A stretch of 49,682 nt of DNA. It comes from Opitutales bacterium. Lineage in GTDB: Bacteria; Verrucomicrobiota; Verrucomicrobiia; Opitutales; UBA9783. Location: positions 1 through 49,682 of the forward strand of contig JAEESJ010000030.1 in NCBI GenBank assembly GCA_016286235.1. Reading direction: 5' to 3'. Under the pieces are notes generated by a model. That model searched no databases, was not told the origin of the DNA, and saw only the letters and a program-made list of their open reading frames with translations. Positions 28,877-35,535 of this stretch are shown here, piece after piece (position 1 is the first letter of the stretch; every line of letters begins with the position of its first letter). Made by a program: the position numbers and the translations under genes.

Positions 28877-29027
28877 GGTTTTTCGGACATTTGTGAGGTG
28901 CATATAACACGCGCGCAATCTCTTGCGGTTGTTTTAATGTTTAGAGGCAGGAGAAAAATTTTCCGAAATTCCAAGATAACGGCGAAATTTGCTTTTTAAA
29001 AACAACGAAGATTGCTATCATGGAACC

Positions 29028-30224
29028 ATGGACGGTATCAAGTCGGTTCGGGAGTTGGCGGTTGAAAAAAAGCGTGTTTTTGTGCGTGCGGATTTCAATG
29101 TGCCGCTGGATCCGAGCGGTACGGTAACGGACGATACGCGTATCACGGCGGCGTTGCCGACGATACAATACCTGTTGGAGCAGGGCGCAAAAGTGATTTT
29201 GGCGAGCCATTTGGGGCGTCCGAAGGGGAAGCGCAACATGCAGTATTCGTTGCAGCCCGTGGCGCGGATTTTGGCGACGCGCCTCAATCAGCCGGTTTTG
29301 TTTTTGGACGATTGCATTGGCAAAGATGCGGAGCAGGCGGTGGCGGATATGGCGGAAAATTCCGTCGTTTTGTTGGAAAATCTGCGTTTTCACCCCGAAG
29401 AAGAGGCGAACGACGAAGCGTTTGCCAAACAACTGGCGGCGTTGGCGGATGTTTATGTCAACGATGCCTTCGGAACGATGCACCGCGCGCACGCGTCGAC
29501 GGCGGGGATGGCTCCGTTTGTGTCGCAAAAGGCGGCGGGTTTTTTGGTCGAAAAGGAATTAAACTTCTTAAAGGAGAAAATCGACGTCCCGCAACATCCG
29601 TTTTGCGTGGTGTTGGGCGGCGCGAAAGTGAGCGATAAAATCGGTGTGATTGAGGCACTTTTGGAGAAAGCCGACCAAATTCTCATCGGCGGCGGCATGT
29701 GTTTTACGTTTGCGTTGGCGCAGGGGAAAAATATCGGCAACAGTTTGGCGGAACCCGACAAGGTTGAACTTGCGAAAGAGCTGTTGGAAAAGGCGAAAGC
29801 GCGCGGCGTTGATTTGCGTCTGCCGACGGATGTGGTCGCTTCCGATGCCGTTGATATGAAGGCGCGTACCTTGGGTGCGACGAAAATTTTTGAAAGCAAC
29901 ATCGACAACGGTTGGCAGGGCGTGGATATCGGACCAAAAACCGTCGAGGATTACGCGTCATGTATTCGAGCCGCGAAAACGGTTTTTTGGAACGGACCGA
30001 TGGGAATTTTTGAAATTCAGGCTTCCGCGGAAGGTTCATTCCGCATTGCGCAGGCGTTGGCGGCGTGCGAAGGCACAACCATTGTCGGCGGCGGCGACTG
30101 CGTGAAGGCGGTGCGTCAGAGCGGTTGCACGGCGGATATTACGTTCCTCAGTACCGGCGGCGGCGCAAGTTTGAAGCTGTTGGAAGGGAAGCCGCTTCCG
30201 GGATTGGAAGCGTTGAAGCGATAA
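29028..30224 (+). CDS. pgk: phosphoglycerate kinase
   Basis: RADFNVP, ASHLGRP, LENLRF, NDAFGTMHRAH, GGAKVSDK, STGGGASL; start moved to ATG 29028. Confidence 0.98.
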   Translation: MDGIKSVRELAVEKKRVFVRADFNVPLDPSGTVTDDTRITAALPTIQYLLEQGAKVILASHLGRPKGKRNMQYSLQPVARILATRLNQPVLFLDDCIGKDAEQAVADMAENSVVLLENLRFHPEEEANDEAFAKQLAALADVYVNDAFGTMHRAHASTAGMAPFVSQKAAGFLVEKELNFLKEKIDVPQHPFCVVLGGAKVSDKIGVIEALLEKADQILIGGGMCFTFALAQGKNIGNSLAEPDKVELAKELLEKAKARGVDLRLPTDVVASDAVDMKARTLGATKIFESNIDNGWQGVDIGPKTVEDYASCIRAAKTVFWNGPMGIFEIQASAEGSFRIAQALAACEGTTIVGGGDCVKAVRQSGCTADITFLSTGGGASLKLLEGKPLPGLEALKR

Positions 30225-30256: not shown

Positions 30257-31033
30257 ATGGGAAAACGATTCTTAATCGCCGGAAATTGGAAGATGAACAA
30301 AACCGCCGCGGAGACGCGTGCGTTTTTTGAAGCCCTGAAGCCTTTATTAACGCCGACGGTGCGCAGTGAGTTACTGATTTGTCCGTCGTTGGTGAGTTTG
30401 GCGGCGGCGTTCGAAGCCAATGCTTCGGTCGGGATTGCGCTGGGGGCGCAAAACGTATATCCGAAGGACAGCGGCGCCTTCACGGGCGAAGTGTCGCCGT
30501 TAATGCTGAAAGAATTTGTTTCGTACGTGCTTGTCGGTCACAGCGAGCGTCGCACGCTGTTGCACGAAAGCGACGATTTTATTAACGAAAAACTGCATGC
30601 GTTGTTGGCGACGGGCTTGAAACCGATTTTGTGCGTCGGCGAAACGCTGTCGGAACGCAAAGAAGGACGCGCCTTTGAGGTGATCGCGCACGAGCTGGCG
30701 GAAGGCTTAAATGGTGTGACGAACGAACAACTTGCGCAGGTGACGATTGCCTACGAACCGATTTGGGCGATCGGAACGGGCGAAACGGCGACGCCCGAGA
30801 CTGCGGAAGAAATGCACGCGTTTATGTATGATTGGCTGACAAAGCGTTTCGAAGCTTCTTCCGTCGAGAAGGTTCGCTTGTTGTACGGCGGTTCTTTAAA
30901 GGTCGACAACGCGAAACAGCTCTTGTCGCGACCGCATATCGACGGCGGATTGATCGGCGGTGCTTCGCTGAAAGCCGATTCCTTTGTCAAAATCGCGCGT
31001 ATTGCGGACGGGATTGAGAAAGGAGACGTCTGA
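30257..31033 (+). CDS. tpiA: triosephosphate isomerase
   Basis: AGNWKMN, GHSERR, AYEPIWAIGTG, LYGGS, GGLIGGASL. Confidence 0.98.
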   Translation: MGKRFLIAGNWKMNKTAAETRAFFEALKPLLTPTVRSELLICPSLVSLAAAFEANASVGIALGAQNVYPKDSGAFTGEVSPLMLKEFVSYVLVGHSERRTLLHESDDFINEKLHALLATGLKPILCVGETLSERKEGRAFEVIAHELAEGLNGVTNEQLAQVTIAYEPIWAIGTGETATPETAEEMHAFMYDWLTKRFEASSVEKVRLLYGGSLKVDNAKQLLSRPHIDGGLIGGASLKADSFVKIARIADGIEKGDV

Positions 31034-31416
31034 CAAGCTTCCTGAGCGGTTTTAAAGGCGCTTCCGGCGACGCAATTTGCGGTTTGGATTGTGTTAAAAC
31101 GCGCAGAGTGACGATTGAAAAGCATGTACATTGTCTGTACAGTGCCTCTGTATGAACGTTGCCTTTGATGCAAAGCGGTTCCGTTTAAGTATTTTCCTTT
31201 CCTGACTTGCTTCATGTGCGAAGTGCGACTCCAACGGACGAACGGGGTGTTGCGGGCTAAGAGATTTAGCTTTTAAAAAAAGCCGGGATATGCGAATGTT
31301 TTTTGGCGCGTTCGTGCTTCGGTAGTGTTTTTGAGCACGTTGTCGTTTTGTGTTACAGTCTGTTGCTTTAAGCTTGCAGAGTGCTCGATAATCGCACCCA
31401 GTAAAGCTGTCGGCGC

Positions 31417-31504
31417 GGAGAGATGACAGAGTGGTCGATTGTGCCTGACTCGAAATCAGGTGTGGGGCAACCCACCGGGGGTTCGAATCCCTCTCTCTCC
31501 GCCA
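31417..31504 (+). tRNA. tRNA-Ser(CGA)
   Basis: GGAGAGA acceptor stem, anticodon arm CCTGA-CTCGAAA-TCAGG, long variable arm, GTTCGAATCC, encoded CCA. Confidence 0.96.
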
Positions 31505-31684
31505 GGTTTTTGAAGGGCGGTTTTTAAAAAAAGCACCATCGCGGAGAAGAAGGCGGAAGTATCCGAGGATGCGGAAAGCTGTGTCGGCGTTGTCGAGTAC
31601 TTCTGTTCAGTATGACTTTCAACACAAGATTTAGATTCCATCTGTTGCGGTGCGGTTGTTGATTGAAACAACGCACATTGCGTC

Positions 31685-31860
31685 TTGACGCTTATAAAGA
31701 AGATTTTTTACCATGAGCTGTGTTGGGTTTTCGAAGCACTTTCATGCTTTTGGCGCCGCATTGTTTGGCGATGTGCTCTTTCGACACAAACACTATGACC
31801 ACAACGTCGACTTCGGAGCGGTAGTTTATTTCCGCTTCTTTCCTTCCTCTTTTTATCCTT
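31685..31860 (+). promoter_or_regulatory. promoter plus ~140-nt leader with Thr/Ser-rich uORF and terminator-like hairpin (candidate attenuator)
   Basis: TTGACG-N18-TACCAT; uORF (M)CSFDTNTMTTTSTSER* ending 31824; stem GGAGCGG/CCGCTTC followed by a pyrimidine-rich tract. Confidence 0.55.
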
Positions 31861-33039
31861 ATGTTTCGTAGATATAAAAACCAAGCCTCGTTTCTGATCT
31901 TTTTCGGTGCATTGTTGTTGCCGTTGCTGTGTGGAAATTTTGTGCCGACGACCGTAAAGGCTTTCCTGCACGCCGTCAGTTTATGCATTAAAGAAGGGTT
32001 GGTGTTTTGTCTGCCGTTTGTGATTTTCTCACTGCTGTTCGGCTCAATTTCACGCCTCGGTCATCGGGCGTTTCGCGTGGTGCTGACGATTTTCCCGCTT
32101 ATTTGCTGTTCCAACTTTTTAAATACCATGCTGAGTTACGGCGTTTCCAAAGTTCTGTCGGGGCAGGGCGAACGCTATTCGGAGGCATTCTCCGGTTCGG
32201 CTTCCGTTTTGAAAGCTTCGTTTCACGTATCGCTGACGCCGTTGTTTTCCAATGATGTCGCGTTGGTGTGCGGTCTGATTTTGGGATTGTTTTTGCGACC
32301 CGTTTCCCAACCTGTGGCAATAGCCTGCGAGCGTGCGGCGTCGGTTGTGACGAATGTTTTTTTTAAAATTTTATTGCCGTTGATGCCGCTGTTTATCGTC
32401 GGCATGATGTTTAAAATGCAACACGACGGTATTTTGTCGTCCGTCTGCGGTTCCTACCTGCCGGTGTTGCTGGTATTTGTTTTGTCGGCGTGCAGTTGGA
32501 TTTTGTTGCAATACGTCCTGTGGTCGAAAGGAAAGCTTTCGCAGGCGGCGACGTATGTGAAAAATGTGTTCCCCGCCGTTGCAACGGCTTTCGGCAGTGC
32601 CTCCAGTGCCGCCGCCATGCCGCTTTCGCTGAAAGCGGCGGAAAAAAATTGTTCCAATCCCGCCAATGCCGACATTATTATTCCGTCAACGGTTAATGTA
32701 CATCTGGTCGGAGATTGTTTTTTTATCCCGATGTTTGCCCTGAGTGTTCTGCAGTCTTTTGGGTTGCCGTTCCCGAGTTTTGGCGTTTATTTGCTGTTCG
32801 CGTTCCACTTTGTGCTTGCAAAATTTGCCGTTGCGGCAGTGCCCGGCGGCGGCGTATTGGTGATGTTGCCGATTTTGCAGAATTATTTGGGCTTAACGCC
32901 TGATATGTTGGCATTGGTGACCGCAATTTACATTTTATTTGACCCGATCATTACCGCTTGCAACGTCGCCGGGAACGGTGCATTCGCGATTTTTTTTGAC
33001 CGCATCGGGAGGCGGTTGCAGGGCGGGTGCGGTAAATGA
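31861..33039 (+). CDS. dicarboxylate/amino acid:cation symporter (DAACS; GltP/SstT-like)
   Basis: TAFGSASSAAAMP, PSTVNVHLVGD, AAVPGGG, FDPIITACNVAGN; multiple TM segments. Confidence 0.9.
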   Translation: MFRRYKNQASFLIFFGALLLPLLCGNFVPTTVKAFLHAVSLCIKEGLVFCLPFVIFSLLFGSISRLGHRAFRVVLTIFPLICCSNFLNTMLSYGVSKVLSGQGERYSEAFSGSASVLKASFHVSLTPLFSNDVALVCGLILGLFLRPVSQPVAIACERAASVVTNVFFKILLPLMPLFIVGMMFKMQHDGILSSVCGSYLPVLLVFVLSACSWILLQYVLWSKGKLSQAATYVKNVFPAVATAFGSASSAAAMPLSLKAAEKNCSNPANADIIIPSTVNVHLVGDCFFIPMFALSVLQSFGLPFPSFGVYLLFAFHFVLAKFAVAAVPGGGVLVMLPILQNYLGLTPDMLALVTAIYILFDPIITACNVAGNGAFAIFFDRIGRRLQGGCGK

Positions 33040-33283
33040 GTAAAAATTAACGGTTGGGAAGAAAGATGGGCGGCTCCCCGTAAAAGCCGATCAAGAACGT
33101 GCGAATACCTGAAATTAAGGTGATTAAACAGACGGGTATTCTCTGCCATCTTTTCCTTGCCCCTTCATAATGTGTATGCTTTGGCCTCCTTTCGGAGGCG
33201 ATTCTTCTCGAAAGCGATCAAAAGAGGTTTTTTCGTTTTTTTACTTTTTTTAAATTTTTTCGAACCATTCCTCCTCAAAAAAC

Positions 33284-33319
33284 TTGATCTTCCTTCCTTC
33301 CTTCCTTTATCATGAAAAC
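33284..33319 (+). promoter_or_regulatory. sigma70-like promoter with (TTCC)4.5 spacer
   Basis: TTGATC-[TTCCTTCCTTCCTTCCTT]-TATCAT-N6-ATG. Confidence 0.6.
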
Positions 33320-34105
33320 ATGGAGAGGAAATTCACATGTTTCATAAGCTCAACGTGCGTTGTTGGGATGCTGTCGGGTGTGTCGTTGGGAGCGACGAGT
33401 AGTTCAGAGGTTGATTACGGACGGGAATGGAATCCCTATGTAACGGTACGCGGCGGGTGGTTGTTTGGAGGGAAGACGAAGTATGTTGACCGCTTGACAC
33501 AAGGGCCTGCGGAAAAGAAGGGCGATCGTAAAGAGAGCCTTAAAAGTGCGTTGTCAGGTTCGGGTGAATTTGGTGTTTCGCTCTGTGAAGATCGCGTATT
33601 GGTCGGATTGGAATTGGGATATTTTACTGGGAAGGCAAAACACGAGTTTGACGCCAACGAAAAGGCAAAATACGGACCCCCTTTGACACTGAATTGGGTG
33701 GATGGCTCCTATGCCGTTGCGGACGGAAAGTACAAAAATCTTTTTGCCACCTTTAATGTAACTTTGAAGAAGGATGTCGGCGAACGCGCTTTTTTGTACG
33801 GCGGTGTTGGTGCCGGTATGGCGCGATCGGATTTTGGGGAACTTAAGAGTAAATGGGATGATGCCGGGGCATGGGTTACCGGAAAGATTGATTTTAAATC
33901 AAAATGGCGGTTTTTGGGGCAGGTATTTGCCGGTGTCGGAATTTATTTGGATGATAATTGGTCGCTGGGTATCGGCTACCGCATGCGGTATTTAACGGGA
34001 GATGTCAATGGATCAAAGGACTATGGCGGTGGTGTTCAGTGGGATTGGAAAGTGAAGCAGGATATTATCCATGCCGTCGAGGTGGGGCTGACATATCAGT
34101 TTTAA
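33320..34105 (+). CDS. outer-membrane beta-barrel protein (OmpA-N/Opa/Ail-like)
   Basis: Signal peptide, amphipathic strands (PYVTVRGG, VGLELGY, LYGGVGAG, SLGIGYR), C-terminal VGLTYQF BAM signal; start moved to ATG 33320. Confidence 0.88.
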   Translation: MERKFTCFISSTCVVGMLSGVSLGATSSSEVDYGREWNPYVTVRGGWLFGGKTKYVDRLTQGPAEKKGDRKESLKSALSGSGEFGVSLCEDRVLVGLELGYFTGKAKHEFDANEKAKYGPPLTLNWVDGSYAVADGKYKNLFATFNVTLKKDVGERAFLYGGVGAGMARSDFGELKSKWDDAGAWVTGKIDFKSKWRFLGQVFAGVGIYLDDNWSLGIGYRMRYLTGDVNGSKDYGGGVQWDWKVKQDIIHAVEVGLTYQF

Positions 34106-34584: not shown

Positions 34585-35535
34585 TTATTTCAAAGTTCGG
34601 AGCTCGGAGCCGTCGGACGTTTCGCGGGCATATTTTAAAATTGCACGTACCAGATTATCTCTTTCGGCAGACGGGGTGTTGTAACGGACGTAAACGCTGC
34701 GCAAGAGGTATTCGAAGCAGTTGGCACGGAACCGTGCTTTAATTTCTTCCTTTAAACAATCTCCGCAGGTTGCATCAAAACCGTCAACGCACTTATTGAA
34801 ACAGGTTGTCACGGAATTGATGAAATCCTCCGTTTTTTTGGAGCTGAATTGCGTTGTGTGCGGAACCATGACCGAATACAGAACGGTTGACCAGGAACCG
34901 TCGGATGCCTGTGCGGCAAGGTACCACGGATCCTTATGAAGTTCGTTGGCAAGTATGTCGGATTTTTTAAGATCATACCAGGAACGAATGCCGGTGCGTA
35001 CAATTTCCGCGATTTCATCGGTTACGTTAAAAATCTTTGCGCAAGCCTGTACATATTCCTGAAACAAGGATTCGGCTTTACGGAAAATTTCTGAGGTTGT
35101 GTCGGAAAGATGCCGGAAGTTTGGCTTTGATGCGTCCGGCGGGTTTGTGAGTTCGCATTGTATTTTATCAAAGGACCACCGCGAAAGATGATGAAAACAA
35201 AAGATATCCCCGCGATGCCTTTGTCCGGACGGTTTTTCGTAACCGCCGGTGTCGATTTTGGTTCGAATTTCCTCAAACGACAGCGCATCTTTTTCTAAAA
35301 AAGTAAGCAAATCCCGCATGAGAGCGACGGCAAGTTTGTGAAGGTTTTCAAGGATTTTTGTTTCGTAATCGTCGGAGCAGGCTTGAATTTTTTGCAACAG
35401 CTCTTCCGACGGAACGGGGAACGCAACGTTATGGTAAAGAACGTTATGTACAATTTCGCGGAGCGGGCGCGTTGCCGAACAAGGCTCGATAAACGGCAAC
35501 AACACCCAGAAAAGCAGAAAAATTTTCAATCTCAC
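34585..35535 (-). CDS. hypothetical exported protein
   Basis: 316-aa ORF with GTG start and Sec-type signal peptide, apparently helical; upstream TTGACA-N16-TATGGT; no family recognised. Confidence 0.75.
   Translation of the reverse strand: MRLKIFLLFWVLLPFIEPCSATRPLREIVHNVLYHNVAFPVPSEELLQKIQACSDDYETKILENLHKLAVALMRDLLTFLEKDALSFEEIRTKIDTGGYEKPSGQRHRGDIFCFHHLSRWSFDKIQCELTNPPDASKPNFRHLSDTTSEIFRKAESLFQEYVQACAKIFNVTDEIAEIVRTGIRSWYDLKKSDILANELHKDPWYLAAQASDGSWSTVLYSVMVPHTTQFSSKKTEDFINSVTTCFNKCVDGFDATCGDCLKEEIKARFRANCFEYLLRSVYVRYNTPSAERDNLVRAILKYARETSDGSELRTLK

Follow-up and report, generated by a model that had tools for sequence, protein, structure and literature searches.

The gene of a DAACS-family transporter in an Opitutales bacterium (assembly GCA_016286235.1) is preceded by a short upstream open reading frame (uORF) that ends in a run of threonine codons, and both the frame and the run are conserved in close relatives. 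The comparison supports well that the uORF is a sensor, probably a threonine-sensing regulatory leader of one kind or another, and the switch that it would operate appears to be non-classical. In the reading that we favor, a ribosome translating the threonine run would relieve termination at a downstream hairpin and pyrimidine tract during threonine starvation; this reading as a whole is given a probability of about 0.45. The analyzed window is the complete contig C37 (49,682 nucleotides) of a 1.03 Mb assembly (49 contigs, 88.8% complete), referred to below as G000.

The leader is located in the spacer between a tRNA-Ser(CGA) gene and the transporter gene (Table 1). The initial annotation, which was made from the letters of the window, had described a promoter-like site, a uORF with in-frame ATG codons, its threonine and serine counts, a hairpin and a U/C tract, and all of these were recovered exactly where it had placed them. 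The order of the parts, in which hairpin and pyrimidine tract follow the uORF and are in turn followed by a gene of the DAACS family, was recovered as well.

Table 1. Features of the leader and its surroundings, numbered from the first nucleotide of the window
Feature	Position	Strand	Details
pgk	28989-30224		
tpiA	30257-31033		
tRNA-Ser(CGA)	31417-31504		
Spacer, tRNA-Ser(CGA) to transporter gene			about 356-359 nt
Promoter-like site	31685-31714	+	TTGACG 31685-31690, 18-nt spacer, TACCAT 31709-31714; 9/12 matches
Three-part stem-loop	31719-31788	+	encloses uORF start and first 15 codons; RNAalifold, 6 sequences
Helix P1	31719-24 / 31783-88		
Helix P2	31732-39 / 31773-80		
Helix P3	31754-60 / 31764-70		
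Leader uORF	31744-31824	+	26 codons and stop TAG 31822-31824
Threonine-codon run	31786-31812	+	T N T M T T T S T in this genome
Terminal hairpin	31815-31838	+	GGAGCGG 31815-31821 / CCGCTTC 31832-31838, 10-nt loop
Pyrimidine tract	31832-31860	+	U/C-rich, extends to transporter ATG 31861
SDF/DAACS transporter gene	31861-33039	+	392 aa; PF00375

Six promoter-like sites were found in the region 31000-33400, compared to 1.6 +/- 1.4 in shuffled sequences, and the -35 and -10 hexamers of the site upstream of the uORF are retained in all six aligned sequences, as TTGAC[G/A] and TA[C/G]CAT. The transcript is likely to start near 31720-31722. With this conserved promoter the uORF would be the first reading frame on the mRNA, which supports its reading as a sensor. 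The frame contains in-frame ATG codons at 31744, 31771 and 31795 and a GTG at 31720, from which the uORF would comprise 34 codons and which could serve as a leaderless start, and its stop codon lies 36 nt upstream of the transporter ATG. The predicted peptide ends in ...MCSFDTNTMTTTSTSER and the stop (T-N-T-M-T-T-T-S-T-S-E-R-stop), and the last 15 codons include six threonine codons (two ACA, two ACT, ACC and ACG) and three serine codons (TCT and two TCG). The codons of the run are read by all three tRNA-Thr genes; ACT, the rarest threonine codon in genes (8%), makes up 3 of the 10 threonine codons in the leader of the related locus L002. Since TCG is the commonest serine codon (36% of the serine codons), the adjacent tRNA-Ser(CGA), which had been put forward as the reader of the TCG codons, is regarded as an incidental neighbor. 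From the proposed sensing of threonine and serine the threonine part was retained, as threonine is enriched, and the serine part was dropped, codon 24 being serine in two and alanine in four of the six sequences.

For the comparison, G000 was aligned with five close relatives, namely G001, G002 and G004 of the same genus, whose transporter proteins are 90-92% identical to that of G000, and the metagenome contigs L031 (94%) and L032 (91%). The uORF frame is retained in all six sequences: at the start position 31744, three of them have ATG and the other three GTG, the stop is TAG in one and TAA in five, and the sole indel within the uORF has a length of 6 nt (L003). Four of the five relatives carry T T T T T T T S T, i.e. 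seven threonine codons in succession, and their uORF ends in ...YSFDTTTTTTTST(A/S)ER and the stop. In G000 two threonine codons of the run are replaced (by Asn and Met), and the run of L003 lacks two codons and contains one Ala. The threonine-rich uORF first noticed in G000 is thus real and conserved, and the relatives show its signature more strongly.

In codons 12-27, the variable sites among the six sequences are distributed over the three codon positions as 2/2/6, and the third-position changes are either synonymous threonine changes or TAG to TAA. The distribution in codons 1-11 is 6/8/1 and hence mostly affects positions 1 and 2, so that this half of the peptide is not conserved; because it pairs in helices P2 and P3 (see below), the 5' half of the uORF appears to be constrained at the level of bases and not of amino acids. 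The alignment shows that uORF and threonine run are conserved and that the substitution pattern resembles that of coding sequence, and the uORF is probably translated. Contigs from three further sequencing runs carry the states found in the relatives, namely 31744 A>G, 31796 T>C (which restores a threonine codon), 31800 C>T, 31803 A>G and 31824 G>A; as they possibly belong to the same species as the loci of the relatives, they are not independent of them.

Two candidate explanations of the uORF were dropped. It could have been a remnant of the transporter N-terminus or part of a read-through product. However, uORF and gene share one frame in L001 and L004 only; 1-nt indels in the spacer put them out of phase in L002 and L003 (open frames of 404 vs 417 and 415 aa), so that the uORF is not a lost N-terminus. 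The interpretation as a RiPP precursor was set aside, with no modifying enzyme being encoded nearby in this 1-Mb genome.

It was also considered that the uORF has no regulatory role and has merely persisted by chance, or encodes a small protein, in a spacer that is young and common to very close relatives. The six leaders have a mean column identity of 85% and the transporters are 90-94% identical, so that retention is not very demanding, and the threonine enrichment in G000 taken alone appears barely beyond chance: 2 of the 19,309 small ORFs (8-60 codons) of this genome have at least 6 threonines in 9 codons, such enrichment is expected once or twice per genome, and two threonine codons of the run have been lost. 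The leader is moreover absent in G003 and in other genera. The signal comes from the comparison. Of 11 ORFs with at least 12 codons on both strands of the spacer, the uORF alone has the same stop and a similar length (32-34 codons, counted from the first start) in all five relatives, whereas none of the other 10 is kept in five of five; two short ones are kept in four, with inconsistent lengths. The run of seven threonine codons is found nowhere else in G002 or G004, and even ACNx6 runs have a single occurrence in each of these genomes (~1 Mb each), which is the leader run. Also the alternation of the start between ATG and GTG and of the stop between TAG and TAA speaks against chance retention, and its location fits regulation, with a conserved promoter on one side and a transporter on the other in a genus in which thrC and hom were not detected. 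On balance, we consider it quite unlikely that the uORF has no role.

Folding of the six aligned sequences with RNAalifold yielded five helices, which are P1, P2 and P3 of the three-part stem-loop, a 4-bp mini-hairpin inside the run and the terminal hairpin. In the consensus fold 96.4% of the cells are paired, and two pairs, one in P2 and one in P3, have changed in a compensatory manner, in either case on the branch of G000; this value was also attained by 24 of 500 shuffles. The support that the compensatory pairs lend to P2 and P3 is modest. The long imperfect stem described by the initial annotation is real, and its conserved register, given in Table 1, differs slightly from the one proposed. 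The whole leader (31715-31875) folds no better than shuffles (z -0.23). Pairing of a purine box (31543-31559) with the pyrimidine tract was rejected, as the fold of 31505-31890 (z -1.0) contained no such helix in its centroid. At its beginning the threonine run overlaps the 3' strand of P1 (31783-31788), and the remainder of the run is located downstream of the P1-P3 stem.

The terminal hairpin of G000 consists of 7 bp with a free energy of -10.5 kcal/mol (z -2.0 vs shuffles). Its 5' arm is formed by the last base of codon 24 and the codons GAG CGG, and the stop codon is placed in the loop. All 7 pairs are kept in all six sequences, solely via one-sided changes from G-C to G-U and with no compensatory change; in the relatives the hairpin is weaker and does not exceed shuffles (-7.1 to -8.8 kcal/mol, z -0.4 to -0.85). 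Both observations speak against the favored reading. In L004 an alternative register of the hairpin is followed by U7, while the U tract of the other sequences is interrupted by C, and a consensus scan did not call the terminal hairpin.

To follow the hairpin during translation, a ribosome covering -12 to +15 of the P site was placed on each of the last 17 codons and the RNA of G000 and L002 was refolded. In G000 the hairpin had a probability of 1.00 at all A-site positions through ACG 31804 and of 0 from TCG 31807 on, the stop codon included. The same boundary was obtained for L002, with a hairpin probability of 0.28 in the free state, 0.23-0.89 up to ACG and 0 from TCG. With the A site on ACT 31810 the whole 5' arm is covered. 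The proposed occlusion of the hairpin by a stalled ribosome is consequently seen from the TCG codon onwards and does not extend to the earlier threonine codons. In this model, stalls on the first threonine codons would leave the hairpin intact, which argues against the mechanism, and since a ribosome at the stop codon also covers the hairpin, the timing of termination under plentiful threonine is hard to place. No antiterminator helix for either hairpin arm was found at any ribosome position in G000 and L002. Given the lack of such a helix and the position of the run, the leader does not follow the classical three-helix model.

The same results bear on an inverted logic, or translational coupling, in which ribosomes restarting 36 nt downstream of the uORF stop, or a following ribosome that melts the hairpin, would keep expression high when threonine is plentiful and let it drop in starvation. 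Stalls early in the run leave the hairpin free and ribosomes that reach the stop cover it, the uORF stop is close to the next start, and the transporter has no Shine-Dalgarno site. Such motifs are barely enriched in the genome: GGAG was found in 5.6% of the upstream regions vs 3.6% in the background, and any of four Shine-Dalgarno motifs at 73 of 385 starts. Against this logic, the accessibility of positions -20 to +15 around the transporter AUG is unaltered by the ribosome and stays at 0.48-0.78 in all states, and switching off an importer in starvation makes little sense for a cell in which thrC, hom and a threonine or serine dehydratase were not detected. We therefore regard the inverted logic as very unlikely.

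What the ribosome would act on depends on the sequence that follows the uORF. Sites with a hairpin and a T tract were found after 52 of 559 genes and inside 47 of 562 (11 vs 2 at the strictest setting), so that canonical intrinsic terminators seem to be scarce in G000 and hardly enriched after genes, and the terminal hairpin would be a weak representative of its kind. Positions -30 to -1 of the transporter consist of 93% pyrimidine, compared to a genome mean of 49% (sd 12%), and only 1 of 385 well-defined starts is as high. The composition of this tract of ~29 nt is conserved among the six sequences and its sequence is not. It could be the U tract of a terminator, a loading site for Rho or a landing site for ribosomes. 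From an RNA library, a contig belonging to a relative was obtained which spans 31476-32081; being an assembled contig it has neither RNA ends nor strand, and it is consistent with read-through, with carry-over of DNA being possible.

In E. coli tnaC, a ribosome that stays on the last codons of the leader blocks Rho behind the stop codon, in a spacer of about 220 nt. A similar Rho-dependent attenuation can be envisaged here, with the tract behind the uORF stop loading Rho and a ribosome at the end of the uORF hindering it. Rho is present in the genome (499 bits, marginally below the cut-off of 509), and the scarcity of canonical terminators, the length of the tract, which far exceeds that of a terminator U tract, its rare and conserved pyrimidine content and a C/G ratio of 2.2 in 31822-31899 (top 3% of the genome windows) are all in line with this possibility. 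However, a ratio within the top 3% is not rare, a ribosome on the threonine run reaches at most about 31825 and thereby leaves most of the tract free, and with a gap of just 36 nt, ribosomes translating the gene should soon occupy the tract. Rho-dependent attenuation is thus judged to be unlikely, and as output of the leader we infer masking of a weak terminator first, with hindrance of Rho on the C/U tract close behind.

The distribution of the leader was analyzed in a family of 21 species genomes, 13 of which encode an orthologue of the transporter (E <= 1e-60). A covariance model of the leader found one copy each in G000, G001, G002 and G004 (E 1e-33 to 1e-36). The other 17 genomes of the family gave no convincing match; three matches with E 0.44-0.91 were obtained, none of them upstream of a transporter. 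In G003, a member of the same genus with 60% protein identity, the gene starts 19 nt past the tRNA-Ser without a leader. Two orthologues of group g3 have short spacers, the g4 orthologue has no threonine-rich frame upstream, and five g5 orthologues possess a different conserved leader of roughly 270 nt. The closest homologues outside the family are assigned to Holosporales or Alphaproteobacteria (39-55% identity), and no threonine-rich frame was found upstream of them. Among 36 loci, a frame with at least 5 threonines in 9 codons within 400 nt upstream was present at 6 of 6 close loci and at 1 of 30 others. The conservation of the uORF hence extends to all five close relatives and does not reach the more distant orthologues. 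On this distribution the leader is a young element confined to part of one genus (4 of the 21 family genomes), and it may for this reason offer a snapshot of how such leaders arise.

Further ACNx6 runs were found at 6 places in the family, three inside long open frames (157-668 aa) and three in short frames, none of them upstream of a transporter homologue. G000 contains 19 candidate uORFs with amino-acid runs, of which the leader uORF is the sole threonine-rich one; of five genes scanned downstream of such uORFs, three have no Pfam family, one encodes a glycosyltransferase and one an LpxD-like protein. An Rfam scan of 31000-32200 (E <= 1) returned the tRNA and sub-threshold overlapping matches, and neither Thr_leader (RF00506) nor a T-box; RF00506 was likewise not found in L002, L004, L008 and L010 (E <= 0.1).

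The sRNA GcvB binds C/A-rich sites in the mRNAs of enterobacterial amino acid transporters. The ACN repeat might accordingly be read as a C/A-rich RNA element, i.e. a translational enhancer or the target of an sRNA or a protein, over which the open frame is incidental. The g5 orthologues carry CAACAACTACGCTAAC about 25 nt before the ATG without an in-frame start codon, part of this motif is common to the run in the leader of the present genus (g1), and sstT turns up in available excerpts of papers on the GcvB regulon. But the g1 frame keeps start, stop and phase across the 6-nt indel, its run varies chiefly at third positions, so that the amino acid is conserved and the bases are not, and the covariance model of the g1 leader misses the g5 leaders. 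Elsewhere in G000, stretches complementary to the leader were limited to scattered 10-13-mers, with no complement beyond about 12-13 nt, which is a weak test as exact 10-mers without G-U pairs were searched. A C/A-rich element with an incidental frame is accordingly deemed highly improbable.

The transporter matches PF00375 over residues 15-381 (E 5.6e-41, 141 bits, cut-off 27.9). The suggestion of an SstT-type transporter did not hold, as the NCBIfam equivalog model NF010151 gave 30.3 bits with a cut-off of 308; judged by this model, the protein is not an SstT equivalog. It was further compared with aspartate and ASCT2 transporters of known structure. The conserved stretch ...DMaRT... of chain 9bgz_A stands opposite ...DPiIT... 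of the query, i.e. the Asp is kept and the Arg is exchanged for Ile. In this family the Arg binds the side-chain carboxylate of the substrate and the Asp binds its amino group, and loss of the Arg is a mark of ASCT-type carriers for neutral amino acids. The binding site is thus of the neutral-amino-acid type, and the substrate is probably threonine. A paralogue in G000 (C2:563-1780, 34% identity) has Ala at the position of the Arg; some 50 nt separate its start from the gene before it, and none of the ORFs listed upstream of it is a uORF with a threonine run.

Neither thrB nor hom was found in G000, and its sole, weak match to thrC corresponded to trpB (TIGR00263, 551 bits), which is the only PALP-fold enzyme found. 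Neither a dedicated threonine or serine dehydratase nor an Fe-S serine dehydratase was found, and the sole Beta_elim_lyase match above cut-off is glyA. In G001-G004, hom and an above-cut-off thrC were not detected; the five genus assemblies searched for thrC and hom are incomplete (76-91% complete). As far as these incomplete assemblies show, threonine would be neither made nor obviously degraded. With no route for its synthesis or degradation detected, threonine has to be imported, and in a genus without detected thrC and hom the sensing of threonine for uptake makes biological sense. In the available text of a study on an Opitutales family from the guts of farm animals, the genomes are described as smaller than about 1 Mb and as lacking amino acid biosynthesis (PMC12306168).

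Based on these results the following course is proposed for the favored reading. The frame would be translated as a leader ORF, in which the run of threonine codons makes the transit time of the ribosome dependent on charged tRNA-Thr, and the run ends one ribosome footprint ahead of the terminal hairpin and the long pyrimidine tract. When threonine is short, the ribosome would linger near the end of the run, on ACG 31804, TCG and ACT 31810, and mask the 5' arm of the hairpin. This would relieve premature termination at hairpin and U/C tract and increase production of the importer for neutral amino acids (probably threonine). When threonine is plentiful, the ribosome would depart at the stop codon and the hairpin would be free to form. 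Translation of the uORF, stalling of the ribosome, the direction of the response and termination as its output are inferred; a leader that is switched on in starvation is favored since neither synthesis nor degradation of threonine could be traced in the genome. As the output step, masking of a weak intrinsic terminator by the ribosome is put forward tentatively and is less likely than not to be correct. Equally doubtful is the more general notion of a leader-peptide sensor of a hitherto undescribed, antiterminator-free build, in a bacterium with hardly any Shine-Dalgarno sites or canonical terminators. In such a sensor it would be solely the place where the ribosome stalls, opposing Rho or a weak terminator, that couples the charging of tRNA-Thr to the import of an amino acid which the cell seems unable to make.

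Leader-peptide attenuation is textbook knowledge for biosynthetic operons of proteobacteria, and here it would act on an importer in a genome-reduced verrucomicrobial gut lineage. If this holds, the leader would be, within the literature searched, the first ribosome-based amino acid sensor known from Verrucomicrobiota and also the first that controls a DAACS importer. It would indicate that streamlined auxotrophs tune nutrient uptake by ribosome stalling, provide a compact example of stalling that acts without an antiterminator helix, and point, from the side of regulation, to threonine as the substrate of an uncharacterised DAACS clade common to reduced Opitutales and Holosporales. In this literature, in which subscription journals and older comparative-genomics papers on attenuators are thinly covered, no threonine-codon leader upstream of an amino acid transporter was found, and none in Verrucomicrobia.

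The classical ribosome-mediated attenuator is thrL of the E. coli thr operon (RF00506). It shares with the present leader a promoter, a leader ORF with threonine codons, a hairpin with a U-rich tract and charged tRNA-Thr as presumed signal. Unlike thrL, which controls a biosynthetic operon, the present leader precedes an importer and contains no Ile codons; its regulatory codons follow the large stem, whereas those of the thrL type are located in the first helix strand, and an antiterminator helix, as present in the thrL type, was not found. In the available part of a survey, the Thr_leader family is one of four amino acid attenuator motifs of possibly gamma-proteobacterial origin, in contrast to the verrucomicrobial host described here (PMC3766115).

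Several other leaders resemble the present one in single aspects. In the pyrBI leader of E. coli, the leader ORF enters the terminator hairpin and UTP is sensed via pausing of RNA polymerase. As in the present leader, the ribosome itself and not an antiterminator helix decides on hairpin formation; pyrBI, however, responds to UTP and not to an amino acid via codons, and here the stop codon is placed in the hairpin loop. T-box leaders control amino acid transporter genes in Firmicutes, and here as there a shortage of one charged tRNA would turn on the uptake of the respective amino acid. T-boxes bind the tRNA directly without a leader ORF, in contrast to the present leader, which has a leader ORF and no T-box match. 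They form a separate group that senses uncharged tRNA, according to the accessible text of the same survey (PMC3766115). A leader peptide governing an operon with an amino acid permease is likewise described for tnaC-tnaAB of E. coli in the portion of a paper that was available (PMC8429421). TnaC senses free tryptophan via its nascent peptide, while the present leader would sense tRNA charging via a run of codons, and the 36 nt behind the present uORF compare to the long spacer of tnaC given above. Ribosome-mediated attenuation of a transporter gene is also exemplified by the bmrB leader of B. subtilis bmrCD, which, as far as the accessible text describes, responds to antibiotics and controls an ABC exporter instead of an amino acid and an importer (PMC4191407). 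Lacking an antiterminator, with displaced regulatory codons, no Rfam match and a non-biosynthetic target, the leader is therefore best described as a variant of the classical attenuator family and not as a member of it.

The acceptor strand of tRNA-Ser(CGA) upstream of the transporter could form one arm of a terminator-like hairpin. The last nucleotides of the tRNA (CCGCC, 31499-31503) are complementary to GGCGG at 31516-31520, with which they could pair, and this second arm is directly followed by TTTTT at 31521-31525. When the sequence was compared with that of the relatives, both pairing partners were found to be conserved. Across the whole genome (G000), canonical hairpin-plus-T terminators occur within genes at about the same frequency as after them, and Shine-Dalgarno sequences upstream of genes are barely enriched (GGAG 5.6% vs 3.6% background). 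Between the hairpin and the promoter-like site of the leader (31526-31684) conservation is patchy; a purine box is one of the conserved patches, and comparison of this stretch with the relatives revealed no conserved ORF and pointed to no function.

Features around the transporter and trpB of the same genome
Feature	Position	Strand	Description
Terminator-like hairpin and T tract	31499-31525		tRNA-Ser 3' end pairing with downstream GGCGG
Purine box	31543-31559		GGAGAAGAAGGCGGAAG
273-aa ORF	33284-34105		after the transporter; outer-membrane beta-barrel (PF13505), below cut-off
316-aa ORF	34585-35535	(-)	without Pfam family
trpB	G000:C38:8814-9794 (L041 1312-2514)		TIGR00263, 551 bits

The arrangement differs in a fifth species of the genus (G003), where only 19 nt separate the end of tRNA-Ser from the transporter ATG (L005, G003:C16, oriented ~1395-1500). 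Because this gap is too short to accommodate a promoter, the transporter of this species must, judged from the sequence, be co-transcribed with the tRNA. A different conserved leader was found in another genus of the family (g5, L008-L012), ~330 nt upstream of the ATG of the orthologue. It contains a small ORF of ~45 codons (MRVVNL...LRTSMAF...FVC*), which all five genomes keep open; L010 carries two insertions, of +1 and +2, that jointly restore the frame. Downstream of this ORF, ~25 nt before the ATG, lies the C/A-rich motif CAACAACTACGCTAAC, which has no in-frame start codon. Searches with L008 and L010 gave no Rfam match to this leader.

Outside the family, the nearest transporter homologues (L036-L040, list P0024-P0120) share 39-55% identity and are annotated as originating from Holosporales or Alphaproteobacteria MAGs, not from other Verrucomicrobia, which hints that the transporter may have moved between genome-reduced lineages. 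As for the genes downstream of the transporter, the 273-aa ORF scored 21.7 bits against PF13505 (cut-off 28.7), and the Pfam search assigned no family to the 316-aa ORF.

The only PALP-fold enzyme found in the reduced genome G000 is TrpB, and such a retained tryptophan synthase beta subunit would be reminiscent of indole salvage.
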